Shown: piece by piece, positions 1,885-57,883 of the stretch
How the letters are laid out: every line of letters begins with the position of its first letter
How positions within the stretch are numbered: position 1 is the stretch's first letter
Source of the DNA: an uncultured delta proteobacterium
Lineage (GTDB): Bacteria > Desulfobacterota > RBG-13-43-22
Reading direction: 5' to 3'
DNA length: 64,000 bases
Assembly: GCA_963843145.1 (NCBI GenBank)
Contig: CAWJJC010000028.1
Coordinates: forward strand, 128,001 to 192,000
The notes under the pieces: generated by a model
The model's input: the letters and a program-made list of their open reading frames with translations, nothing else
Database searches by the model: none
What the model was told of the DNA's origin: nothing
Program-made: the position numbers and the translations under genes

Positions 1885-2042
1885 GAACCAATAAAAAAAC
1901 TCTTTGATTAGTCTTCATGCTAACGATAGCACATTTCCGGATGGGGGTAAAGGATTAATTTTATTTCTTTCAATGAGTTGGGATGGTTGACGGACTTGAC
2001 AAATCGGTTGACTCATGCCAATACTGCTATCATCTTTGGACT

Positions 2043-2175
2043 AGCCAAAAAAAGTCGAATTTTTTTGGCTGTAATAAAAAACCTCTAAAAAGGATTTAAA
2101 AGAACGTTTTTTATATTAGATTCTTACATCCGTTGTTAGAGACAAATCCTCAGAACAATGGATGTAAGAATCTAA
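2043..2175 (+). repeat. ~133 bp two-hairpin leader element, copy 1
   Basis: Hairpin 2043-2070, AT-rich linker, 22-bp-arm hairpin 2116-2175; homologous to 7404-7536. Confidence 0.85.
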
Positions 2176-2185
2176 AGGGGAAGGC

Positions 2186-3127
2186 ATGAAAAAAATTCTC
2201 GTTACGGGGGGGGCCGGCTTTATCGGCAGTCACCTCTGCGAAGTTTTGCTCCAGGATGGAAATGATGTAGTCTGCCTGGATAACTATTATACCGGATCGA
2301 AGGAGAATATCCTTCCTCTGCGGGAGAATCCTCATTTTGAGCTGCTGCGGCATGATATTGTCAACCCCATCGTCCTGGAGGTGGATCAAATCTATAATCT
2401 GGCCTGCCCGGCATCGCCCATCCACTACCAGTTCAATCCGGTTAAAACCGTCAAGACGAACGTCATGGGCACTCTGAACATGCTCGGATTGGCCAAACGG
2501 GTCAAGGCCCGAATCCTGCAGGCCTCCACTTCGGAGGTCTATGGGGACCCGGCCGTGCATCCCCAGAAAGAAACCTATTGGGGCAACGTCCACTGCATCG
2601 GACCTCGGGCCTGTTACGACGAAGGAAAGCGGGTCGCCGAGACCTTAATGATGGATTATCACCGCCAGCACCGAGTGGATATCCGAATTGTACGGATTTT
2701 TAATACCTATGGCCCGAGGATGGCCCTGGACGACGGGCGGGTGGTCAGCAATCTCATCATCCAGGCCCTGCGCGGTGAACCGTTGACGGTGTATGGCGAT
2801 GGGCAGCAGACCCGCTCTTTTTGTTACATCTCCGATATGGTGCGGGGGCTGAAGGGCATGATGGAGCAGGAGTCCTTCCCCGGTCCGGTCAACCTGGGCA
2901 ACCCCCGGGAATTCACCATACTGTCCCTGGCCGAAAAAGTGAAGGCCATGACCGGTTCATCGTCTCCGATTATTTTCATGCCCCTGCCCCAGGACGATCC
3001 CATTCAGCGGAAACCGGATATTGCGTTAGCCCAGGAGCGTTTGGGCTGGTTTCCGGAAGTGAGGCTGGAAGAGGGCCTGGTTCTGACCATCGAATACCTT
3101 CGCCAGGCAGTCCAACAAAACAATTAA
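2186..3127 (+). CDS. uxs: UDP-glucuronate decarboxylase (UDP-xylose synthase) family SDR
   Basis: [30 protein letters not shown] motifs. Confidence 0.92.
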
Positions 3128-3131
3128 ACCC

Positions 3132-3809
3132 ATGACGTCTGGTCTAAATTTTTCGTCTAACCGAACGATCGCCCCGCTCCGTCTTCTGGTCTTTATTCTT
3201 TCTCTGCCCTCCGTTTTCTTCTTATTGGCCGCCTTGACTTGGGCCGAATCTCCGGCGGAGTGGCGCCGGGTGGTCAGCGTGGAGGATGGGGATTCGATTA
3301 CGCTGGATAAAGGCCGGCGGGTCCGCTACCTGGGGATTGATTCCCCGGAGCGGGGAGGGCCGGGGAAAGGCGAAACCTTGGCCGAAGAGGCCCATCGTTT
3401 CAATCGCCAACTGGTTCGGGGTCAGGACGTCCGGCTGGAATATGAGGCGGAGCTTCTGGACCGCTACCAGCGGCTGTTGGCCCACGTGTATTTGAAGAAC
3501 GGCCTTTGGGTGAACGGGGAGATGGTCAAAAAAGGCTTGGCCCATGTGCTCTACCAGGCGCCCAATACGAAGAAGTTCGAAGCACTGTTGAAGCGGCAGC
3601 GGGTAGCCATAGACGAGCGGCGGGGTATCTGGAGCAAGGCCCTGGAAGAAACCGAATCGGAATACCGTGGTCAGCGGATCACCAGGAAATTTCATCGAAG
3701 GGATTGCCTCGTCGGACAAAAGATAGCGGCTAGGAACCTGGTCCTTTTCAAGCACAAGAAAGACGCCTATCTCCAGGGCTTCAGCCCCTGCCGCCTATGC
3801 CGGCCATGA
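3132..3809 (+). CDS. Thermonuclease (SNase-like) with C-terminal Ada-type Zn-binding domain, exported
   Basis: VEDGDSI, VRYLGIDSPE, DRYQRLLAHVY; C-terminal FHRRDC..GFSPCRLCRP; hydrophobic N-terminus. Confidence 0.88.
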   Translation: MTSGLNFSSNRTIAPLRLLVFILSLPSVFFLLAALTWAESPAEWRRVVSVEDGDSITLDKGRRVRYLGIDSPERGGPGKGETLAEEAHRFNRQLVRGQDVRLEYEAELLDRYQRLLAHVYLKNGLWVNGEMVKKGLAHVLYQAPNTKKFEALLKRQRVAIDERRGIWSKALEETESEYRGQRITRKFHRRDCLVGQKIAARNLVLFKHKKDAYLQGFSPCRLCRP

Positions 3810-3827
3810 GGTTAACCGTTAACAAAT

Positions 3828-4271
3828 ATGGATGACCGTCGTTACCCCGAACGACCCTTTATCGGGGTCGGGGCCATTGTTTTTGAGGAGGATCGGGTTT
3901 TATTGATTCGTCGGGGAAAGGACCCCGAAAAGGGAAAATGGAGCATTCCCGGGGGGGCGGTTCATCTGGGGGAAACCCTGGTCCGGGCTGTCTGCCGGGA
4001 GGTGGAAGAAGAGACCGGCTTGGAGGTGGAAGCCGAACGCCTGGTCGAGGTTTTTGAACGGATTATTCCCGATGAACAGGATCGCGTCCTTTATCATTAT
4101 GTGCTGATCGATTATCTTTGCCGGGTGGTGGCAGGTCGGCTAAGGGGGGGAAGCGATGCCCTGGAAGCCGCTTTTCATCCTTTGGGGGGCATTGAGGGCC
4201 TGGCGTTAACTGAGGGAACCGGCCCGATTATTCGAAAAGCCTTTGACCTGAAAAATAGAATTTTTTCTTGA
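3828..4271 (+). CDS. NUDIX hydrolase
   Basis: Nudix box GGAVHLGETLVRAVCREVEEETGL. Confidence 0.92.
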   Translation: MDDRRYPERPFIGVGAIVFEEDRVLLIRRGKDPEKGKWSIPGGAVHLGETLVRAVCREVEEETGLEVEAERLVEVFERIIPDEQDRVLYHYVLIDYLCRVVAGRLRGGSDALEAAFHPLGGIEGLALTEGTGPIIRKAFDLKNRIFS

Positions 4272-4296
4272 CAAAAGTGGGTTGGAGAAGTATTAA
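4268..4296 (+). promoter_or_regulatory. Possible sigma70 promoter of the qrc operon
   Basis: TTGACA-N17-TATTAA; -10 box imperfect. Confidence 0.4.
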
Positions 4297-4463
4297 CGGA
4301 TGAGTTTTATTCTCTAATAATTCCCAACAAATTGAACTACCCAATAAAAGATGCCTGTGTTTGAAACCATGGGGGTTATCCATATATCGGCCCGACCTGG
4401 ACTATAAATTGGTATAGCCCGGTTCGGGTTTTTTTATAAAATAATAAAATTAGGACAGGGATT

Positions 4464-5045
4464 ATGGAAAAAGAGATGGAAACAGAGGGAAAATCCAAGG
4501 GCACCTGGATGTTTTTCTGGGTCGGGGTCGTGGCATCCTTGATTTTAGGCTGGCTGATCTTCCCGGGACTTATCCAGAGCAAGAAAGTCCAACCCGTGAA
4601 ATTCAGCCATCTCAAGCACGGGGAAGCCGGGGCCGGGGCGCAGTGCGAAGATTGCCATTCATTCCGGAAGGATGGCACCTTTGCCGGTATTCCGCCCCTG
4701 GCCAAATGTCTGGAATGCCACGAGTCGGCTCAGGGCAGCTCCAAGGAAGAGGCCGATTTTATTAAATTGGCGGAGCAACTCAAGAAAGAAAATAGAAACA
4801 TTTCCTGGTTGATCTACTCTCAACAACCCAACAACGTTTTTTTCTCCCATGTGGCCCATGTCAAAATGGCCAAACAAAACTGCACGGATTGCCACAAGCT
4901 GGTGGGCGGAAAAACCGATAAAAATCCGGTATATAATTACAAGTGGATTTCAGGCTACGCTCCTGAAGTGATGATGATGGAAACCTGTGAAGCCTGTCAC
5001 CAGAAGAAGGGTAAAAGCAACGCCTGTTTTGTCTGTCACAAATAG
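4464..5045 (+). CDS. qrcA: Menaquinone reductase multiheme cytochrome c subunit
   Basis: N-terminal TM helix, five CxxCH motifs, ends NACFVCHK; first gene of a four-gene operon. Confidence 0.85.
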   Translation: MEKEMETEGKSKGTWMFFWVGVVASLILGWLIFPGLIQSKKVQPVKFSHLKHGEAGAGAQCEDCHSFRKDGTFAGIPPLAKCLECHESAQGSSKEEADFIKLAEQLKKENRNISWLIYSQQPNNVFFSHVAHVKMAKQNCTDCHKLVGGKTDKNPVYNYKWISGYAPEVMMMETCEACHQKKGKSNACFVCHK

Positions 5046-5090
5046 AACTTGACCAGACCTTAACGCTGGTAAAACACGAGGAATAGGAAA

Positions 5091-7406
5091 ATGCCAACCA
5101 TTGATCGCAGAGATTTCCTGAAGTTTATCGTCGGGGGCGCGGTGGGGACCATGGTTTCACCCCTGCCCTGGGTGCCCATGGATGAAGTGGCCAAATGGAG
5201 CCAGCGTTGGGCCCCCATTCCCGAGAGCGGCGAATCCTCCTATCTGAATTCTATCTGCCTCCTTTGTCCGGGGGCCTGCGGCATCAAAGTCCGGCTGATC
5301 GAAAGTAAGCGGGCGGTAAAAATCGAAGGCCAGCCAAACCATCCGGTAAATCAGGGCGGGCTATGTCCATTGGGCTTGGCCGGGTTGCAGTACCTGTACC
5401 AGGAAGAGATCCGCGTGAAGGGTCCGATGAAGCGTTTCGGTCCCCGGGGGAAGGGGGATTGGCTGCCGGTCTCCTGGGAAGAGGCCTATGGTGATTTGAC
5501 CAAATGGTTAAAGGAATTGCGTCAGAATAACCAGACCCACACGGCGGCCCTTCTGGATGGTCGCGGCGGACAAGGAAGCCTTTCCCTGTTGATGGCCCGA
5601 TTCATGAGAAGCTACGGTTCCCCTAATTATATTCGAACCCCGCGATTGGGAGATACGGAAGAAATGGTGACGGCCTCCCTTCATGGGGTCCGCTCCTCCT
5701 TGGCCTATGACCTGCCCCAGGCCAAATATATCCTCAGCTTCGGCGCGGGATTGTTGGACGGTTGGGGAACTCCGACCTGGGTGAGCCAGGCTTACCGGGA
5801 ATGGAGAAAAGATCCCCCGGCGGGAAGGGCCAAATTAGTCCAGGTGGAACCCTTAGCCTCCACGACGGCCTCCCTGGCGGATGAATGGGTGGCGGTAAAA
5901 CCAGGGACCGAGGGATCTTTGGCCTGGGGCTTGGCCCAAATCATGATTTCCAAAGGCTGGATTAACCGGGAGGCTATCCAGGCGGGGACTTCAGGTTTGG
6001 AAGGCTTGAAAGAAGTGCTGGATAAAAAATATACTCCGGACAAAGTGGCCAAGATTACCGGCTTGCCTCCCGAGGATATTGAAAAACTGGCCAAGGAATT
6101 CGCCTCGGCCAAACAAGGGGTCGCCCTGATGGGGAGAGGGAAAGGGGACCTGGCCATTCCTTTTTCTGAGGGTGCGGCCATCCTTACCTTGAACGTTCTG
6201 ATCGGGGCGCTGAATCGCAGCGGCGGGGTCTTTTTAAAGTCAGAAGGGGGACTAACCGCCTCCTGGCCCAAGGCGCCGCTGGATGGCAGTGCTGAGAAGG
6301 GGTTGGCCCAACCGCGGCTGGACAGCATCGGGAGTTCGAAGTTTCCCGCGGGCCAACCTAATTATATCCAATTTTTCAGCAATGCGGCCCAACAGACACC
6401 TTATCCGATCAACCTCCTGATGCTTCACGAGGCCAACCCGGCCTTTCGGTTGGGGGAGGAGGCGATCAAGGCCGCCGTGGCCCGCATCCCCTTCATCGTC
6501 AGCTTTTCATCCTTTTATGATGAAACCACCCAATTGGCGGACCTGATCCTGCCGGCGCCGACCTTCCTGGAGCGTTGGGATGACGCCTATGGGGTCCCGG
6601 GGGTGCCCTATCCGGTTTATGGCCTGGCCAAGCCCGTACTGCCCCCCCTTCATGGAAACCGAAATCCGGGCGAGGTGCTGATCGCTTTGGCCAAAAGCCT
6701 GGGCGGATCGGTTCAGGAGGCCTTAAGCTTCGAAAATATGGAAGCCGTAATTAAGCAGAGCGCCAAAACCGTTTTCGAGACCAAAAAGGGCCGGCTGAGC
6801 GATAGCCCGCCGTCGGAAGCCGGCAAGTCCGGCGCCGCCTCTTTTGAATCCTTTGATAAATTCTGGGAAGGGCTGGTCCGGGAAGGGGCCTGGTATCATC
6901 TGGAAGGCGCCGGGGTCGGGGGACAGGGGAAGATTGACGTCTATCCTGCCGCCCTCCGCCAGGAACCGGAAAAAATTGATTTAAGCTTTACCTACTATCC
7001 TGGAGAGGAGAGCCCGCTTTTGATGGTGCCACTGTCCTTGATGTTGCTCCAAACCGGATACTTCCCCAATCCGCCTTTCCTGACCAAGTACCTGGGCGAA
7101 GAAATCTTAAAGGCCAATGACCTGATGGCCCAGATTCATCCGGCTACCGCTAAAAAGTTCGGCCTGAAACAAGGGGAACGGGTGACACTGAAATCGGAGG
7201 GAGGGAGCATTAAGGTGGGGGTCCAATTGTTTGAAGGGGCCATGCCTCAGGTCATTTTCGTTCCCCTGGGAATGGGGCACGAGGCCTTTGATCCGACTTT
7301 GAAAAATCGCGGGGCCAATCCCTATCCGCTGCTGGATAATATTATTGACCCGGTGAGCGGGTTACCGATCTCCTGGGTCACCAAGGTAAAAATTCAAAAA
7401 ATTTAG
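5091..7406 (+). CDS. qrcB: Menaquinone reductase molybdopterin-binding-like subunit
   Basis: Tat signal DRRDFLK, CLLCPGACG..C motif, molybdopterin oxidoreductase fold, operon context. Confidence 0.85.
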   Translation: MPTIDRRDFLKFIVGGAVGTMVSPLPWVPMDEVAKWSQRWAPIPESGESSYLNSICLLCPGACGIKVRLIESKRAVKIEGQPNHPVNQGGLCPLGLAGLQYLYQEEIRVKGPMKRFGPRGKGDWLPVSWEEAYGDLTKWLKELRQNNQTHTAALLDGRGGQGSLSLLMARFMRSYGSPNYIRTPRLGDTEEMVTASLHGVRSSLAYDLPQAKYILSFGAGLLDGWGTPTWVSQAYREWRKDPPAGRAKLVQVEPLASTTASLADEWVAVKPGTEGSLAWGLAQIMISKGWINREAIQAGTSGLEGLKEVLDKKYTPDKVAKITGLPPEDIEKLAKEFASAKQGVALMGRGKGDLAIPFSEGAAILTLNVLIGALNRSGGVFLKSEGGLTASWPKAPLDGSAEKGLAQPRLDSIGSSKFPAGQPNYIQFFSNAAQQTPYPINLLMLHEANPAFRLGEEAIKAAVARIPFIVSFSSFYDETTQLADLILPAPTFLERWDDAYGVPGVPYPVYGLAKPVLPPLHGNRNPGEVLIALAKSLGGSVQEALSFENMEAVIKQSAKTVFETKKGRLSDSPPSEAGKSGAASFESFDKFWEGLVREGAWYHLEGAGVGGQGKIDVYPAALRQEPEKIDLSFTYYPGEESPLLMVPLSLMLLQTGYFPNPPFLTKYLGEEILKANDLMAQIHPATAKKFGLKQGERVTLKSEGGSIKVGVQLFEGAMPQVIFVPLGMGHEAFDPTLKNRGANPYPLLDNIIDPVSGLPISWVTKVKIQKI

Positions 7407-7536
7407 CCAAAAATATTTGAAATATTTTTGGCTATAATAAAAACCTCTTAACAGATCTTAAAATAACGTCTTTTAATTTAGATTTTTACATCCATTGTTC
7501 TGAGAATTTGTCTTTAACAATGGATGTAAAAATCTA
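7404..7536 (+). repeat. ~133 bp two-hairpin leader element, copy 2 (between qrcB and qrcC)
   Basis: 15-bp-arm palindrome 7404-7434; perfect 21-bp-arm hairpin 7479-7536. Confidence 0.85.
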
Positions 7537-7546
7537 GAGGGTAGCC

Positions 7547-8326
7547 ATGAAAGAAATTCCTCTCGGCAAAGAACTCTATGGCATGGTGATCGATTTAGAC
7601 CGGTGCACCGGATGTGGGGCCTGTGGCGTGGCCTGTTTCGCTGAAAATAACATCGCCTATCGAACGGATGAAACCGACAAGCTGCGAACGGGCACCTGGA
7701 TGCGGCTGTACCGCTTGAACAACGGAAAGCCCTTTCCCAAGACCCGGGTAGCCTATTTCCCCCGTCCCTGCATGCACTGCCAGAACCATACGCCCTGCGT
7801 TTCAGTCTGCCCGGTCAACGCCACTAAGATTGATGAACAAGGAGTGGTCAGCCAGATCTATCCCCGCTGCATCGGTTGCCGGTACTGTGTGGCCGCCTGC
7901 CCCTACCATGCCCGGTTGTTTCACTGGTGGGACCCGGTGTTCCCTCAGGGTATGGAAAATTACCTGAACCCGGACGTTTCCGTGGCCATGCGCGGAGTGG
8001 TCCATAAATGCACTTTCTGTCATCACCGCTATCAGCGGGCGAAAGACCGGGCCTTTATGGAAGAGCGCCGGGACCTGAAAGAGGGGGAATATAATACGGC
8101 CTGTGCCGAGGCCTGTCCCACCCAGGCTATAACCTTCGGGAATCTGCAAAATCCCGAAAGTGCGGTGGCCAGGCTGAGCAAAAGTCCCCGGGCCTTTCGC
8201 CTGTTGGAAAAACTGGGAACCCAACCCAAAGTGTATTATCTGACCTCGCAGGAGTGGATTCAGCGGCAAATTGACAACTATTTGGAGGGAGAGACCATCA
8301 AAAGGGTCTCGTCCGGGCATAACTAA
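7547..8326 (+). CDS. qrcC: Menaquinone reductase 4Fe-4S subunit
   Basis: CTGCGACGVAC, CMHC..CVSVCP, CIGCRYCVAACP, CTFC..CAEACP (NrfC-like). Confidence 0.9.
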   Translation: MKEIPLGKELYGMVIDLDRCTGCGACGVACFAENNIAYRTDETDKLRTGTWMRLYRLNNGKPFPKTRVAYFPRPCMHCQNHTPCVSVCPVNATKIDEQGVVSQIYPRCIGCRYCVAACPYHARLFHWWDPVFPQGMENYLNPDVSVAMRGVVHKCTFCHHRYQRAKDRAFMEERRDLKEGEYNTACAEACPTQAITFGNLQNPESAVARLSKSPRAFRLLEKLGTQPKVYYLTSQEWIQRQIDNYLEGETIKRVSSGHN

Positions 8327-11346: not shown

Positions 11347-13064
11347 TATGTAAATAAGCCTCTATGACCTGCAAAAAGGCAATAATCAATAGATAATTGA
11401 CGATAGATAATTGACAATTGATTATTGATTATTGATATCCTGCGGTTAGGGAGTTGTCTCGCCCCTTTATTTTCATGCTTCGTGGGTGCCCCGCCGCCCA
11501 AACCAAGGCCGGAGAGGATCCCCGGCACCTTAGCCTAACCTTAGGATGTGAAGGGAACCATATCCCTCTCCCCGCCGGCCGGCGACCCCGCCGGCCCTAC
11601 TTTTAACTACGGTTATCCCCCACACCCCCACCCTCTCCCTCGTGGGGGAGAGGGAGCCAGAGGAAACAGCCCAAGCCTTTGAACTTCCCCTCCCCTGGCG
11701 GGAGGGGACTTCGGCGTGAGCCCTTCGGCAGTGAGCTCAGGGTCGAACTGCTCAGTCGAACGATAGAGGGGTGGGGGAACTACGATTTTTATGCTTCGTG
11801 GGTGCCCCGCCGCGGGGCATGGCGGTTTAGTACGAAAATAGAATCGAACACCGCTTTTTATGACTTTCCCCTAGGTAGTCATACCGGACTTGATCCGGTA
11901 TCCAGTACCTCCGGTGCTTATCCAAGGCTGGATTCCGGATCGCGCTTCGCTTGTCCGGAATGACAAATCTTGGTCAATCCTTATTTTCAAGCTTCGGGGT
12001 GCCCGCCCCAGGCATGGGGGTTTAGTATGTAAATGCAAAGTGCAAAATTAAAGATGTCTGATGTAGCACAGACGCCCTCGTCTGTGTCCCTATTCGTTTG
12101 AGGACCCACCAACAGGAAATAGGGAGCAACAAAAGCAAAGATAAAAATCCTCTCGAGTTAGGGAGGATTTTTTATTTGTGCGCCCGGCAGGGTCATACGG
12201 ATCCCAGTGCTGGCATCCTTCTTGTATTTTCTAATCCCCAGGGTTATTCAAAAATCTTAAGGATGAGTGAAGACGAGGAGGAAAAATGAAACCGGGAATG
12301 GCTTGTTGCTGTCTTTTAGGTGTCTTATCTTGCTGGACACAGGGTTATCCGGAAACGATTCACCGATATACCGATAAAAACGGGGTGCTCTGTTTTTCCA
12401 ATTCCCTGACAGAGGGGAATTTTCCAAACCGGGGCCTATCAGAAAATCAAAAACCTGCTTCGGCTGAGCTGCAACGGGCGCGTGAACAAGCCGAAATCGA
12501 GTACTGGCGGGCGGTCGAGGCCAAGGCCCGCTCTTTGAGGAATACCCCTGACACCGAAGTTCACAGGAAAGGAAGACCTTCTTCACAGCTAGAGGACTTT
12601 AGTTTGCGGAAGGGCCCGTCCGGGAAAAAAACTCACAGACGGAAGACGGGGAAAATGCGTGGCTCCGTTTCTAATGACCGAAAACCTGTTCCTGATTCGG
12701 CTGAATCAAAGAAAGTTCGATCGAGGAAAACAAAGTTGCAGGCCTGGAAGAACGCACCGGAATGGGAATTTCAGAGTATGAATAGAAGCTATTTCCCGAG
12801 GAGGAACGCGGCTCTAAAGTAACCCGCTTCGGGGCACCCTCTGTGGCATGAGGGTTTAATACGTAAATAAAGTTGGACACCGCTTTTGAGGTTTTGGTTT
12901 TTGCTGTCATCCCGGACTCGATCCAGGATCCAGGCAACCCAAGACCTTCACTGCCCTGGATTCCGGCGTTCGCCGGAATGACGACCTAACCAAATGAATA
13001 AAAATTGATCTTCATGCTTCGCAGGTACCCGCTCCGGGCATAACGGGCGCAGGTTACGGTAAAT
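11341..13064 (+). repeat. Tandem array of palindromic sites separating variable cargo
   Basis: Sites or half-sites at 11341-11355, 11469-11496, 11785-11839, 11983-12034, 12826-12868, 13008-13064, all in the same orientation. Confidence 0.8.
12286..12822 (+). CDS. DUF4124-like exported protein with basic low-complexity tail
   Basis: Signal-like N-terminus followed by IHRYTDKNGVLCFSN; GAGGAGG RBS. Confidence 0.7.
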   Translation: MKPGMACCCLLGVLSCWTQGYPETIHRYTDKNGVLCFSNSLTEGNFPNRGLSENQKPASAELQRAREQAEIEYWRAVEAKARSLRNTPDTEVHRKGRPSSQLEDFSLRKGPSGKKTHRRKTGKMRGSVSNDRKPVPDSAESKKVRSRKTKLQAWKNAPEWEFQSMNRSYFPRRNAALK

Positions 13065-19809: not shown

Positions 19810-20073
19810 GGCCGTGCATCCTCTCTCGAACCAACAGCCAGGGTGTCCCCTGCCTGAAACAAAAGACTAGAGGCAGTTACGACACAAACCGCATTATTTA
19901 CCGCTGCTTCCTCCCGGACCTGACGGGGTTCATAATCGTTTGTTGCGTAACGTCCAATCCCAATTTCAAGAGAGGTAATCACCATGGATATTTCAAGTCC
20001 TCAAGAGGATATTCAGCCCCGCGTAAGCGGATTTCGGGTACAGGGCACCGCTAACTCCCCGCCTAGCACGACC
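19810..20073 (-). ncRNA. ffs: Signal recognition particle RNA, large (Alu-domain-containing) type
   Basis: Helix 8 GAACCCCGTCAGGTCCGGGAGGAAGCAGC; 5' Alu-like GCGGGGAGTTAGCGGTGCCCTGTACCCGAAATCCGCT; ends GGTCGTGC/GCACGGCC pair. Confidence 0.9.
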
Positions 20074-22512: not shown

Positions 22513-24432
22513 ATGGAAAATAACAACGAGGAAATGGGTAAACTTGAACAAGAAACCAACACTGAGGAACCGTCCGTCCAGGAATCCGTGGTAACCGACA
22601 GGGGGGAAGAGGATCTCCAGACTTTGGAGGAACCGTCCATCCAGGAATCCGAGGTAACCGACAGGGGGGAAGAGGATCTCCAGACTTTGGAGGAACCGTC
22701 CGTCCAGGAATCCGTGGTAACCGCCCAGGGGGAACAGGAGTTCCAGACTTTATATGAAGAAAGCTTGAAAACCTACCAGGAGGGGGAAGTCGTTCGGGGT
22801 AAGATCGTGAGCATTGAGAAAGAATTTGTCATGGTCGATATCGGATATAAGTCCGAGGGACGGATCCCGATCGATGAATTTATGAGTTCGGTTGGCGGGG
22901 AAATAACCGCCAAGGTCGGCGATTGGATTGATGTGCTCATTGAAAAGCGGGAAGACGAAGATGACGGCGATATCCGTCTTTCCAAGGAACGGGCGGCGAA
23001 GATTTTAATCTGGGATGAAATCAGCCGGATCTACCGGGATGACGGGGTCATTGAAGGCCGGGTAGTCGGGAAAGTGAAGGGCGGGTTGTCGGTCGATATC
23101 GGCCTGCCGGCCTTTTTGCCCGGATCGCAAGTGGATCTTCAACCGGTTCGGGATATGGATCATCTCATCGGCCAAACCCTCTTTTTTAAGATATTGAAAT
23201 ACAATAAGAAGCGGAACAATGTCGTTCTGTCCCGGCGATCCATATTGGAAAAAGAAAGGGAAAGTCAGCGAAACCAGATATTGGATACCCTGGAAAAGGG
23301 GCAGATTCTGGAAGGAGTGGTGAAGAATATCACCGATTATGGGATCTTTATCGATCTAGGCGGTATTGACGGACTGCTGCACGTGACCGATATTTCCTGG
23401 GGTCGGGCCAGTCACCCTTCCGATATCTGCCAGGTGGGCGAAACGCTACGGGTGGTAGTCTTGAATTTCGACCGGGAAAGGCAGCGGGTTTCTCTGGGAC
23501 TTAAACAGCTTCTGGCCGATCCCTGGACGGTAGTAACGGAAAAATACCAAATCGGTTCCCGGGTTCAGGGGAAAGTGGTGAACCTAACCGAGTACGGGGC
23601 CTTTGTGGAACTGGAGACCGGGGTGGAAGGGCTGATTCACGTTTCGGAAATGTCCTGGACGCAGAAGATCCGTCATCCATCGAAAGTTGTTTCGGTGGGG
23701 GATCAGGTGGAAGCCGTGGTCATATCCGTGGACCCCGATAAGAAACGCATTTCGTTGGGCATGAAACAGATAGAGCCGAATCCCTGGGATGTGATTGCCG
23801 AAAAATATCCGGTGGGGACGGTTATTGAAGGCAAGATTAAGAATATTACCGACTTCGGCTTGTTTATCGGCATCGACGAAGGCATTGACGGGCTGGTTCA
23901 TATTTCAGATATTTCCTGGATCAAGCGCATCAAGCACCCGGCCGAGTTATACAAAAAAGGTCAGGAGATTCAGGCCAAGGTCCTGCATATCGATAAGGAT
24001 CAGGAACGTTTTTCTTTGGGCATCAAGCAGTTGGAGATCGATCCCTGGGAGGATATCCCCCGAAAATACGCCCCCGGGACAATGGTTACCGGAATTATCA
24101 CCAATGTGACCGATTTCGGTATCTTCGTGGAGTTGGAAGAGGGGATCGAGGGTCTGGTGCATGTTTCCGAGGTGAGCAAGGAAAAAATCAAGACCCCGGT
24201 CGGTCTATTTAAAGTGGGTGACCTGATCAGCGCCAAGGTTATCAATGTCAATAAAAAGGACCGGCGCATCGGATTGTCTATTCGCCGGGCCAAAAAAGAA
24301 GAAGATCAACAATACGTGAAGGAATATGTCAATACTTCCCGGGAAGCCAGTTCCAACCTGGGGGATTTGTTGCGGGAAGGATTGGAAAATAAAACCAAGA
24401 CCTCTCTCGATCCCCAGGAAAATACCGACTGA
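22513..24432 (+). CDS. rpsA: 30S ribosomal protein S1 with repetitive acidic N-terminal extension
   Basis: Six S1 domains; follows cmk. Confidence 0.96.
   Translation: MENNNEEMGKLEQETNTEEPSVQESVVTDRGEEDLQTLEEPSIQESEVTDRGEEDLQTLEEPSVQESVVTAQGEQEFQTLYEESLKTYQEGEVVRGKIVSIEKEFVMVDIGYKSEGRIPIDEFMSSVGGEITAKVGDWIDVLIEKREDEDDGDIRLSKERAAKILIWDEISRIYRDDGVIEGRVVGKVKGGLSVDIGLPAFLPGSQVDLQPVRDMDHLIGQTLFFKILKYNKKRNNVVLSRRSILEKERESQRNQILDTLEKGQILEGVVKNITDYGIFIDLGGIDGLLHVTDISWGRASHPSDICQVGETLRVVVLNFDRERQRVSLGLKQLLADPWTVVTEKYQIGSRVQGKVVNLTEYGAFVELETGVEGLIHVSEMSWTQKIRHPSKVVSVGDQVEAVVISVDPDKKRISLGMKQIEPNPWDVIAEKYPVGTVIEGKIKNITDFGLFIGIDEGIDGLVHISDISWIKRIKHPAELYKKGQEIQAKVLHIDKDQERFSLGIKQLEIDPWEDIPRKYAPGTMVTGIITNVTDFGIFVELEEGIEGLVHVSEVSKEKIKTPVGLFKVGDLISAKVINVNKKDRRIGLSIRRAKKEEDQQYVKEYVNTSREASSNLGDLLREGLENKTKTSLDPQENTD
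22564..22752 (+). repeat. 3 x 63-bp in-frame tandem repeat in rpsA
   Basis: Units 22564-22626, 22627-22689, 22690-22752 encode EEPSVQESVVTDRGEEDLQTL-like 21-mers. Confidence 0.95.
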
Positions 24433-34414: not shown

Positions 34415-35482
34415 ATGAAGGCCTTAGTACTCTCCGGCGGCAAAGGGACCCGTTTGCGTCCCATTACCCATACCATGGCCAAGCAACTGGTTCCGGTGGC
34501 CAACGAACCGATTCTGGGGTATGTTTTTCAGCACTTGATGGATGCCGGCATCAAGGAAGTGGGGGTGATCGTAGCTCCGGAAACCCAGGAGGATGTCCGC
34601 CGATTTTTGGGGGACGGCCGTCGCTGGGAACTGCGCATTACCTACATCCTCCAGGATCAGCCTCTGGGTCTGGCCCACGCGGTCAAAACCGGGCAGCCTT
34701 TCCTAGGCCAATCCCCTTTTGTCATGTACCTGGGGGATAATCTCTTGGCCGAGGGAATCAAAGGCTACCGGGAGCGGTTTCTGGAAGAAAAGTTGGACGC
34801 CTTCCTCTTCTTGAAGGAAGTGGACAATCCCAGCGCCTTCGGAGTGGCGGTTCTGGATAAAAAAGGGCGTATCACCCGCCTGATCGAAAAACCGAAGAAA
34901 CCGCCTTCCAATCTGGCCCTGGTGGGGATTTATTTTTTTTCGCCCCGGATCCACGAGGCCATCGCCCGGATCAAGCCCTCGGCCCGCGGGGAGCTGGAAA
35001 TCACCGATGCCATCCAGGAATTGATGAATATGAAAGGCCTGGTCAAGGGGCACAAACTGGAAGGCTGGTGGCTGGACACCGGCAAAAAGGATGATTTTCT
35101 GGCGGCCAATACCACGGTCCTGGACGATTACGTGAAACGGGACCTCTGCGGCGAATGTGATTCTCAAAGCCAGGTGACCGGACGGGTCCGCCTGGGAACC
35201 AAGGCCCGGGTAGTGAACAGCATTATCCGCGGTCCGGCGGTGATCGGCGAAGGGGCGGAGATCAGCGATTCCTTTATCGGGCCCTACACCACCATCGGTC
35301 CCCGCACCCGGATCATCCATTCCGTGGTGGAGCATTCGGTTATTTTGAATGACTGCCACATCGAGAATATCCCCCGCCTGGAGGACAGCCTCATAGGCCG
35401 GGAAAGCCGGATTACCCAGGGTAAAAACCAGTCCCAGGCCCTGAGGTTGATGGTGGGAGACAACGCGGTGGTGGAAGTCTAA
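34415..35482 (+). CDS. rfbA: Glucose-1-phosphate thymidylyltransferase (long form)
   Basis: LSGGKGTRLRPIT, PSARGELEITDA, WWLDTG, C-terminal hexapeptide repeats. Confidence 0.93.
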   Translation: MKALVLSGGKGTRLRPITHTMAKQLVPVANEPILGYVFQHLMDAGIKEVGVIVAPETQEDVRRFLGDGRRWELRITYILQDQPLGLAHAVKTGQPFLGQSPFVMYLGDNLLAEGIKGYRERFLEEKLDAFLFLKEVDNPSAFGVAVLDKKGRITRLIEKPKKPPSNLALVGIYFFSPRIHEAIARIKPSARGELEITDAIQELMNMKGLVKGHKLEGWWLDTGKKDDFLAANTTVLDDYVKRDLCGECDSQSQVTGRVRLGTKARVVNSIIRGPAVIGEGAEISDSFIGPYTTIGPRTRIIHSVVEHSVILNDCHIENIPRLEDSLIGRESRITQGKNQSQALRLMVGDNAVVEV

Positions 35483-35633
35483 GCCAAAAATTATTGAATT
35501 TTTGGCTAGAAATGGTCGAAATTCGAAGCACGAAACAAATTCTAAGGACGAAAATCCAAAAACCCCATGTTTAGAATTTTGATCATTTGAATTTTGAATT
35601 TGTTTCGGATTTCGTGCTTCGTATTTCGGATTT
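35482..35633. repeat. CCAAAAA palindrome (35482-35507) followed by an inverted heptamer repeat
   Basis: AGCCAAAAATTATTGAATTTTTGGCT, then CGAAATTCGAAGCACGAAAC...GTTTCGGATTTCGTGCTTCG. Confidence 0.75.
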
Positions 35634-45193: not shown

Positions 45194-45227
45194 ACTAAAG
45201 TATCTTATAAACGTGATGGTATTGTTT

Positions 45228-45294
45228 AAATTCGAAATCCGAAGCACGAAATTCGAAACAAACGGCAAAATTCAAAACTCAAATAACCGAAACA
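45228..45294 (+). repeat. Heptamer repeat, single arm
   Basis: AAATTCGAAATCCGAAGCACGAAATTCGAAAC. Confidence 0.65.
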
Positions 45295-50382: not shown

Positions 50383-50580
50383 GGGCGCCGCGGCGCCTCC
50401 ATATACGGGAGGCGCCGCGGCATCCTCGAAGCATGAAACAGGAACGTTTTTAATCGGGTCATTGCGAGGAGTGAAGCGACGAAGCAATCCCCCTAAGGGT
50501 TTGGGACTTCCCGCAGGCACATCAGGGGGATTGCTTCGCATCGCTCGCAATGACTATGGGAGTGGGGTTATTTTCGAACC
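50383..50580 (-). repeat. GC hairpin + site half (CGAAGCATGAAA) + GTCATTGCGAG..CTCGCAATGAC REP (50458-50554)
   Basis: Inverted arms seen directly; similar unit at 56806-56919. Confidence 0.75.
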
Positions 50581-56805: not shown

Positions 56806-56919
56806 GGGCACCCGCGAAGCATGAAAATACAGACCCCCGGTCATTGCGAGGAGCGAAGTGACGAAGCAATCTCCCAGGCAGTTTTCAACCCTTGCCAGAC
56901 CCAAGCGGGGGATTGCTTC
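56806..56919 (-). repeat. Site half (GGGCACCCGCGAAGCATGAAAAT) + truncated GTCATTGCGAG REP
   Basis: Right arm stops at GATTGCTTC where the transposase sequence begins. Confidence 0.75.
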
Positions 56920-57883
56920 AGTCGGGCGATTGAACACCTGAAGAAACGATTTGTTGAAGAAGGGCTGGAAGCGGCTCTGGAGCGTAAGCCCCGGGAAAAG
57001 CCTTCACGGGAATACATTTGACGGTGCCTTTGAAGCCCTATTAATCGCCTTGGCCTGTTCAGAAGCCCCGGAAGGTCGCCGACGCTGGACAATTAGACTT
57101 CTGGCCGACAAGGCCGTCGAACTCGGATGGCCCCCGTCGGTGTCGCATATGACGATACAGCGGGTTTTAAAAAAAACGAACTTAAGCCTCACCGCAGCCG
57201 ATACTGGAAAATACCTCCCGAAGGGAATGCGGCCTTTGTAGCCCAGACGGAAGATGTCTTGGATATTTATCATTTGCCCTATGATCCGGACTACCCGGTA
57301 GTATGCATGGACGAATCCAACAAGCAAATGATCGGTAAGTCGGCCAGCCTATCCCCCGCGCCCCGGGACAAGGCGCGCACTCACGATGAATATGTCCGCC
57401 ACGGGGTGGCCGAGATATTTATGGAAGTGGAACGTCTTGCTGGCAAAAGACATGTCGCCGTCATGGAATGTCGTACCCGTAAAGATTGGGCCAGGCAAAT
57501 CAAGCAAATGCTGGATAAACGCAACCCGAAGCGATGAAGGTACGTTTGGTTATGGATAATCTGAATACCCACAATATCGCCTCACTCTTCGAGACCTTTG
57601 AACCCAAGGAAGCCAGACGTTTGGTGGAACGACTGGATATTCATTACACCCCGAAACACGGAAGCTGGTTAAACATGGCGGAAATCGAACTCAGCGTCCT
57701 GAATGGACAATGCCTCGATCCCCGGATTCCGGACATGGCCACCATGCAAACTGAAGTAGCTGCTTGGGAAAGTGAACGAAACAACCGGGCAAAAAAAAAT
57801 TTAATGTGGCAATTCATTACCAAAGACCGCTCGGATTAGATTGAAAAGGCTTTATCCGAAACCTATAATTGTATAAATGATAT
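56920..57883 (+). mobile_element. IS630-family element remnant, 5'-truncated, with frameshifts
   Basis: APEGRRRWTIRLLA, LKKNELKP slippery A8 at 57169-57176, VVCMDE, VMDNLNTH, YTPKHGSWLNMAEIE. Confidence 0.9.

Follow-up and report, generated by a model that had tools for sequence, protein, structure and literature searches.

The element and its two copies in the window

The window analysed here is a stretch of 64,000 nucleotides (nt) from an uncultured delta proteobacterium (GenBank assembly GCA_963843145.1, contig CAWJJC010000028.1, positions 128,001 to 192,000). It contains two copies of a repeated element built of two hairpins, one lying just before a sugar-nucleotide epimerase/dehydratase gene and the other between qrcB and qrcC, and the loop of the second hairpin is inverted between the two copies. 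Throughout, G000 is the genome that holds the window and G001 to G003 are its congeners, C numbers denote contigs and L numbers single loci; state A is the usual orientation of the loop relative to the element and state B is the reverse.

An earlier note on this DNA had described the two stretches as a collinear leader element, and the collinearity was borne out when 2000-2220 was aligned with 7361-7581 (mean column identity 79%). The element consists of an AT-rich hairpin 1 at the left (TAGCCAAAAA...TTTTTGGCT), a spacer of about 45 nt and hairpin 2 at the right, which has arms of 21 base pairs (bp) and a 16-nt loop in both window copies (Table 1). The folding energy of hairpin 2 of copy 1 was -32.1 kcal/mol as RNA and -19.1 kcal/mol as DNA. 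No open reading frame (ORF) of 60 or more amino acids (aa) lies inside the element. No Rfam family matched the element at its gathering score, the whole window yielding a signal recognition particle (SRP) RNA alone, and a search of region 1950-2250 at E values up to 1 returned only sub-threshold matches to generic hairpins, at 25 bits or less.

The reverse complement of loop 2 agrees with loop 1 at 14 of 16 positions, exactly as the note had stated. Set against the family consensus AGAGACAAATTCTCAG, loop 2 matches at 15/16 positions as its reverse complement and at 2/16 when read forwards, and the length is 16 nt in either state. The loop is partly palindromic (GAGA-CAAAT-TCTC); its asymmetry lies in five apical bases and in a bulge of A versus AG. 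The fold is nearly alike for the two states, with the inner GAGA/TCTC mini-stem kept in both. The compensatory arm change proposed for hairpin 2 also proved to be a true double change, C:G versus T:A, with 21 copies carrying C:G and nine carrying T:A in the tally of 31 genomic copies of 58 nt. Pairing of the arms is kept across copies, with 96.3% of arm cells paired, double changes in 8/21 pairs and none of 1000 column shuffles reaching the observed pairing; perfect arms were found in 12/31 copies.

Table 1. Coordinates of the element copies, neighbouring genes and other features in the window.
Feature	Position	Strand	Remarks
Promoter-like site	1996..2025	+	TTGACA, 18 nt, AATACT; consensus match only; upstream of copy 1
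Element copy 1	2044..2172	+	129 bp; TA flanks 2042-2043 and 2173-2174; GGAC-TA-129-TA-AAGG; between promoter-like site and ribosome-binding site of the epimerase/dehydratase gene
Hairpin 1 of copy 1	2043..2070	+	AGCCAAAAAAA / TTTTTTTGGCT; 11-bp stem on folding
Hairpin 2 of copy 1	2117..2174	+	arms 2117-2137 and 2154-2174; loop 2138-2153; state A (family-typical)
Short-chain dehydrogenase/reductase (SDR)-type, nicotinamide adenine dinucleotide (NAD)-dependent sugar-nucleotide epimerase/dehydratase gene	2186..3127	+	best match 136 bits, under all curated cut-offs
qrcB	5091..7406	+	NF041783, 445 bits, cut-off 440
Hairpin 1 of copy 2	7404..7434	+	TAGCCAAAAATATTT GAA AAATATTTTTGGCTA
Element copy 2	7406..7534	+	129 bp; TA flanks 7404-7405 and 7535-7536; between qrcB and qrcC
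Hairpin 2 of copy 2	7479..7536	+	perfect arms 7479-7499 and 7516-7536; loop 7500-7515; state B (inverted relative to the family)
qrcC	7547..8326	+	NF041782, 409.9 bits, cut-off 400
Bacterial large SRP RNA	19812-20071	-	Rfam RF01854, 152.9 bits
Decayed IS630-type (DDE_3) transposase gene	56951-57839	+	at least two frames; ORFs 56951-57241, 57127-57537 and 57534-57839

The two downstream genes had been named uxs and qrcC. The second name holds, as qrcC and the rest of the qrcA to qrcD set all exceed their NCBIfam cut-offs; the name uxs missed every cut-off and is unconfirmed. At both loci the element ends 1-3 nt from a purine-rich ribosome-binding site and 11 nt from the ATG (2186, 7547), in agreement with the leader-like position first described. 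The sequence ATGAAA[A/G]AAATTC that follows both elements is also present at the empty sites of relatives, so the ribosome-binding sites and the ATGAAA...ATTC starts are native. The qrcB stop codon TAG (7404-7406) is made of TA and the first G of the element, and insertion into the stop codon thereby preserves the stop. The number of promoter-like matches in the region was not above that in shuffled controls; if the site upstream of copy 1 is used, this copy would fall in a 5' untranslated leader. Inside the element, neither a promoter-like site nor a terminator was found on the gene strand, and one weak terminator-like call fell on hairpin 1 of copy 2 on the opposite strand.

Copies, insertion sites and ends of the element

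A leader present in just two copies was ruled out by genome BLAST and a hairpin census. Either copy, searched against its own genome (5.35 Mb, 32 contigs), gave matches on most of the 32 contigs, and a fuzzy search for both arms recovered 33 complete hairpin-2 copies; a looser search for the loop core found 46. Many copies are internal-deletion derivatives which retain the left end and hairpin 2. A DNA search of related genomes found matches in 14/31, with 23 to 40 per genome in three congeners and 20 and 50 in the genomes of a second genus; the remaining genomes had few or none. When 185,579 species genomes (one per species) were scanned with an exact pattern, the loop was seen in four metagenome-assembled genome (MAG) assemblies only, at 37 loci, all four assemblies being titled Deltaproteobacteria or delta proteobacterium. 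Judged from these searches, the two stretches are copies of a gene-less, interspersed mobile element of about 129 bp. No description of the family was found in the open-access literature searched, including that on miniature inverted-repeat transposable elements (MITEs) in Desulfo- taxa.

The suggestion that a hairpin inserts here holds in a broad sense, since empty sites show that the whole unit is an inserted element. The qrcB/qrcC site is empty in G003, of the same genus (...aaaaatTTAGagggtagccATG), and nine further relatives have a qrcB/qrcC gap of just 11 or 12 nt; in G000 and G002 the element is inserted at precisely the same TA of this junction. The epimerase-gene site is likewise empty in G003 (GGGC-TA-GGGGGGATGGCATG) and its G002 ortholog is filled in the same orientation, whilst the G002 copies L091, L093, L113 and L109 stand opposite clean empty TA sites in G000. 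Across six clean filled/empty pairs, TA is present on both sides when the site is filled and once when it is empty, leaving an element proper of 129 bp (G...C) with TA either side.

Among 50 end-defined copies (a table in which orthologs are counted twice and a few rows are doubtful), 40 have the left TA and 47 the right TA. C stands before the left TA in 39/50, and the right TA is followed by A in 33 and by G in only two. As C precedes the left TA and G rarely follows the right one, the target is asymmetric. On the most likely reading the element inserts at TA, preferably at C|TA, and ends with TA on both sides. Alternatively, insertion could occur after a CTA that resembles the element's own CTA tail, without symmetric TA duplication. 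Insertion at C|TA directs copies to AT-rich places between genes, for instance stop codons and positions just before ribosome-binding sites, and this is why both window copies look like leaders. In 12/33 copies the hairpin-2 end is followed by a gene start in the same direction, and in 8/33 a divergent gene start is found beside the opposite end (by crude ORF calling, in which some 'convergent gene end' calls are probably spurious). With no clear bias between the two, a leader function for the whole family was set aside. Any effect of the element on qrcC or the epimerase gene is probably small.

The element has no terminal inverted repeats, as its left end GCCAAAAATATTT does not match the complement of its right end GATTCTTACATCC; each outer end pairs with its own neighbouring arm, as half of its own hairpin. 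In G000, a shared insertion sequence (IS) bracketed by two distant element ends was not found, and long-range inverted pairs of the left-end motif, considered as a parent IS, were chance pairs without shared sequence. A DDE_3 (IS630-type) search of 21 family genomes gave two identical intact copies, both in G002, with ends unrelated to those of the element. A MITE mobilised by IS630 (RUP type) was therefore rejected: the TA target fits, but the genus yielded just one intact IS630-like element, and its ends are unrelated. This IS630-like element, in G002, is 1117 bp long with ends that begin TATTAAC... The Y1_Tnp search gave 11 matches in G000, none adjoining a copy of the element. Outside the window, G000 carries three units of about 1.07 kb (C12:95523, C15:56049 and C15:62881), 89 to 99.8% identical, each coding for a protein of 336 aa in which a Y1 (IS200-type) transposase domain is weakly recognisable. 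The IS630-type and Y1 families, the only ones searched, yielded no partner transposase.

Hairpin 1 is found on its own as well, and fused to repeats of other types. At the L090 site, hairpin 2 in G002 and a different repeat in G000 lie beside the same hairpin-1 end; in the window this is 1140-1400, where a GC-rich repeat adjoins a hairpin-1-like end (1365-1392) at the place where G002 has a state-B hairpin 2. The same hairpin-1 end thus carries different 'cargo' in the two genomes. At L068, a public MAG locus, a full-length element lies inside a solitary hairpin 1, so the element family nests within its own end module.

Other repeats were seen in the window. Families D1, D3 and D6 (1140-1346, 11802-12034 and 12831-13039) are GC-rich hairpins followed by TTTAATACGAAAAT. 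Families D5 and D9 (1747-1884, 35474-35633 and 45227-45293) are palindromic CGAAAT/CCGAAAC-like units, and units of this type elsewhere in the genome often stand directly after a hairpin-1-like TAACCAAAAAT...TTGGTTA unit. The short D14 repeat GGTCATTGCGAGGAG..GACGAAGCAATC lies at 50457-50493 and 56839-56875, and its motif also flanks several element copies (for example downstream of C32:33068, and at L105 and L119 of G002). At 22564-22752 there are three tandem 63-nt repeats with 89 to 97% identity (family D4), which may encode a repeated peptide.

Loop orientation and flips at orthologous loci

Each copy was oriented by its loop, and the side on which left-end or spacer motifs lay was scored by a fixed rule; all orientations were read from consensus draft assemblies. 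The tabulation of genomic copies, which the earlier note had proposed as a check, gave 34 A, 2 B and 10 unassignable among the 46 loop cores of G000. The 38 cores of G002 comprised 23 A, 4 B and 11 unassignable, and the 37 cores of the public scan 27 A, 2 B, 6 unassignable and 2 scored as 'both', which are A-state by eye. The typical orientation was thus present in 34/36 orientable copies of G000 and in 23/27 of G002. The two B calls in G000 are copy 2 at qrcB/qrcC and C17:36798, a decayed relic judged doubtful. Of the public B loci, L058 is a full-length copy in another genus and the other has the same sequence as L090 of G002. B copies are present in three separate assemblies. A pattern census of short-gap copies in 21 family genomes gave 14 A and 4 B; a 'B' match at G007:C181 in this census was false, being the A-state element nested in the solitary hairpin 1 of L068. 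One orientation is the rule and the reverse is found in a minority, roughly 5 to 15% of orientable copies.

Such a minority might be produced if the assembler had turned the spacer between perfect inverted repeats the wrong way round. Where k does not exceed the arm length, a de Bruijn graph leaves the orientation of the spacer ambiguous; all genomes compared are draft assemblies, and that of G000 has an estimated contamination of 6.89%. Nevertheless, ordinary reads and the larger of the common k values span 21-bp arms, the B copies come from three separate assemblies and form a small minority rather than a random half, and flipped copies differ from their orthologs by further arm and loop substitutions. 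We regard an artefact of this kind as the least likely of the explanations considered.

The claim that the core had flipped while its flanks had not was confirmed at the qrc site, where the G002 ortholog at the same TA has the opposite, family-typical loop. The G002 copy is a deletion derivative with the loop AAAGACAAATTCTCGG in state A, and the state-B loop of G000, read backwards, is AAAGACAAATTCTCAG; both share an uncommon A at loop position 2 (the AAAGAC variant). Four metagenome contigs carry the element at this site. Three of these are in state A and none is in state B; in the fourth (L186), hairpin 2 is without its left arm and loop and without part of its right arm. As G002 and the three metagenome contigs are all in state A, the flip belongs to the G000 lineage alone. 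The deletion in L186 differs from the internal deletion of G002 at this site, and the long palindrome seems to be a hotspot of both deletions and flips.

All 38 G002 copies were then compared with G000 via their flanks. Eleven loci were filled in both genomes with the same orientation and three were filled in both but flipped; 11 G002 sites were without the element in G000 and 13 could not be placed. Together with the epimerase-gene locus, one of the 13 unplaced, found by eye to have the same orientation and added to the 14 loci compared by script, flips were present at 3/15 shared loci, with flanks about 92 to 99% identical. At C17:135526, G000 and the outgroup G003 are in state A and G002 is in state B, so here it was G002 that flipped. 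At C28:200572, G000 is in state A and G002 in state B; G001 and G003 are without the element, their junction being too diverged for a clean target site to be recognised. By a rough symmetric two-state estimate on the 15 loci, a copy flips several times as fast as a single site is substituted. A template-switch event, which the note had named as the outcome that would refute its own reading, fits best, though as a recurrent event and not the single one that the note had in mind. On the comparison of these orthologs, the same kind of flip has arisen independently at other copies in related genomes.

At two of the three flipped loci, the arms of the orthologs differ exactly as they would had one arm served as the template for the other. 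At the qrc site the left arm of G000 is the complement of the shared right arm, with two mismatches in G002, and at the C17 locus the right arm of G002 is the complement of the left, with one mismatch in G000. A rule that the derived B state always goes with perfect arms held in these two polarised cases and failed for L090, L106 and L058; since other B copies have imperfect arms, the recopying is a hint only. Such a pattern would arise if the nascent strand, on reaching one palindrome arm during replication, jumped to the opposite template, copied the loop from the other strand and switched back at the second arm, leaving the spacer reverse-complemented and the arms, in some cases, perfectly complementary. 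The relevant parts of PMC8604942 describe intermolecular template switching that inverts the spacers of inverted repeats, can homogenise their arms and prefers long arms, with inversions that are reversible and recur over short evolutionary times. Loop inversions in ribosomal RNA (rRNA) hairpins, bacterial ones included, are reported in the pertinent sections of PMC8794818, and part of PMC5941160 presents template switching as the process thought to keep bacterial inverted repeats perfect. For plastid 'small inversions' at hairpins, the portion of PMC6824564 concerned gives five to seven state changes within a plant tribe.

The inverted loop is most likely a recurrent replication error at a long palindrome, and the flips appear to be a by-product of that long, perfect palindrome rather than a regulated switch. 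Taking mobility and loop inversion together, we think it likely that the element represents a new MITE-like family with recurrent spacer inversion by replication template switching. Several points weigh against this. Template switching is deduced from the pattern of change alone, and every orientation comes from consensus assemblies. The B copies L090, L106 and L058 have arm mismatches or an indel, and at C28:200572 the G000 and G002 copies also differ by distinct internal deletions. Flips at 3/15 loci amount to a high rate, which could hint at more than random error. With respect to mobility, the element's ends are without inverted repeats, the IS630-like ends are unrelated to them and no Y1 match is adjacent to a copy.

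The note had raised a micro-inverton or cruciform-driven switch. If such a switch were programmed, the loop would toggle within the population and alter the RNA or DNA element shown just before the ribosome-binding site, thereby adjusting how strongly qrcC and other genes are translated. The recurrence of flips (3/15 shared loci), the B copies in three assemblies, the position of copy 2 abutting the qrcC ribosome-binding site and a 16-nt loop about as conserved as the arms (94.6% versus 93%) are consistent with such a switch. The proposed tie to translation starts found no support, as there is no strong preference for positions before genes (12 versus 8 of 33) and one orientation is strongly dominant (34/36 and 23/27 orientable copies). 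At the qrc site itself, G002 and three metagenome contigs are all in the typical orientation, and where the site is empty in relatives, the ribosome-binding site and start codon are the same. The fold is barely altered, with the GAGA/TCTC mini-stem formed in both orientations, and the element offers no promoter-like site on the gene strand. The copies are dispersed without a linked recombinase (for which no systematic search was made) or a common neighbouring gene. Known invertases require sites much further apart than 16 nt, and there would be no room for synapsis between abutting 21-bp arms. We consider a programmed switch very unlikely.

Replacement of the loop from elsewhere must also be weighed. 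Hairpin 2 might be a tiny, TA-flanked mobile or exchangeable module, its arms serving as terminal inverted repeats, with a flip resulting from excision and re-insertion, or from replacement, in the opposite orientation by a mobilising enzyme. TA bounds hairpin 2 on both sides within the element, some copies are without a recognisable left part (for example L100 and L064), hairpin 1 occurs solo and joined to other repeat types, and the L090 site has hairpin 2 in G002 and another repeat in G000 at the same hairpin-1 end. Yet flipped orthologs retain their locus-specific variants (at the qrc site, for example, the TTTTT arm and the AAAGAC loop; at the C17 locus, the CAGATTTTT arm), which argues for inversion in place and not replacement; the search in the IS630-type and Y1 families also yielded no enzyme. 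An exchangeable module is accordingly rated as quite unlikely. The same retention of locus-specific arm variants stands against ectopic gene conversion, in which another copy would pair with the palindromic arms in reverse and donate a reverse-complemented loop. Each genome holds dozens of near-identical copies, and the AAAGAC loop variant of the qrc copy is found in three other G000 copies, both of which speak for conversion. However, homology on each side is just 21 bp and more steps are required than for an intramolecular or fork-level switch, making conversion highly improbable.

In a further alternative, hairpin 2 would be a self-contained, TA-bounded palindromic module of a modular mobile system without terminal inverted repeats, in which other types of cargo share the hairpin-1 end, and a strand-specific enzyme would both move the element after C|TA and invert the module in place. 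We hold this to be unlikely. Were it true, populations would carry both loop orientations, and the orientation would alter the RNA loop before ribosome-binding sites such as that of qrcC.

Comparison with known systems

With bacterial MITEs (Correia/NEMIS, RUP and ERIC), as characterised in part of PMC2229807, the element shares a length of 100 to 200 bp, non-coding sequence, many copies, TA termini and transcripts with long stem-loops; both lie between genes and inside operons, at sites filled in some relatives and empty in others. Small size (under about 300 bp), lack of coding capacity, dispersed variable copies and target-site duplication all speak for placing it among them; terminal inverted repeats are missing, and the IS630-type and Y1 searches gave no related autonomous IS with the same ends. 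It differs in that its outer ends are not mutual inverted repeats, its target is asymmetric and no IS with matching ends was found, and the asymmetric flank preference is untypical of a MITE mobilised by IS630 (RUP type). A TA-flanked element with two hairpins and an asymmetric target adds to the evidence that mobile repeats of this lineage are moved by an agent not yet identified.

Phase-variable invertons of the fimS or hin type are alike in having a segment flanked by inverted repeats and seen in two orientations. Their segments are of 100 or more nt, versus 16 nt here, and the element has no promoter inside and one dominant orientation. The flips described above call for caution in inverton scans and in divergence estimates based on alignment.

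Plastid 'small inversions' (PMC6824564, citing e.g. Kim and Lee 2005) likewise occur in non-coding stem-loops, of which one loop form is common and the other rare, and closely related species differ by several flips; these are single-copy sites of an organelle, whereas the element is a dispersed mobile family. Recurrent loop flipping within a bacterial repeat family was not found described in the open-access literature searched. Near-identical long palindromes across related genomes constitute a dated natural experiment in which flips can be counted per locus (3/15), and the family offers a rare estimate of the speed of spacer inversion versus point substitution in bacterial chromosomes.

The closest likeness is to spacer inversion by template switching (a Ripley-type model), as set out in portions of PMC8604942 and PMC8794818. 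There, as in the element, the loop is exactly reverse-complemented, its length is unchanged and the flanks are untouched; the events are recurrent and reversible, favour long arms and are sometimes accompanied by homogenisation of the arms. Here the loop is reverse-complemented at the same length between arms able to pair, and it is inverted in place at orthologous sites, with the direction given by comparison genomes at the qrc and C17 loci. The cases covered in those portions of the yeast and rRNA surveys mostly involve 2- to 5-nt spacers within genes or rRNA stems. The element differs from them in its 16-nt loop, its 21-bp arms and the repeated flips across copies of a mobile repeat in bacterial chromosomes, but the loop flip itself belongs to a known class of mutation.

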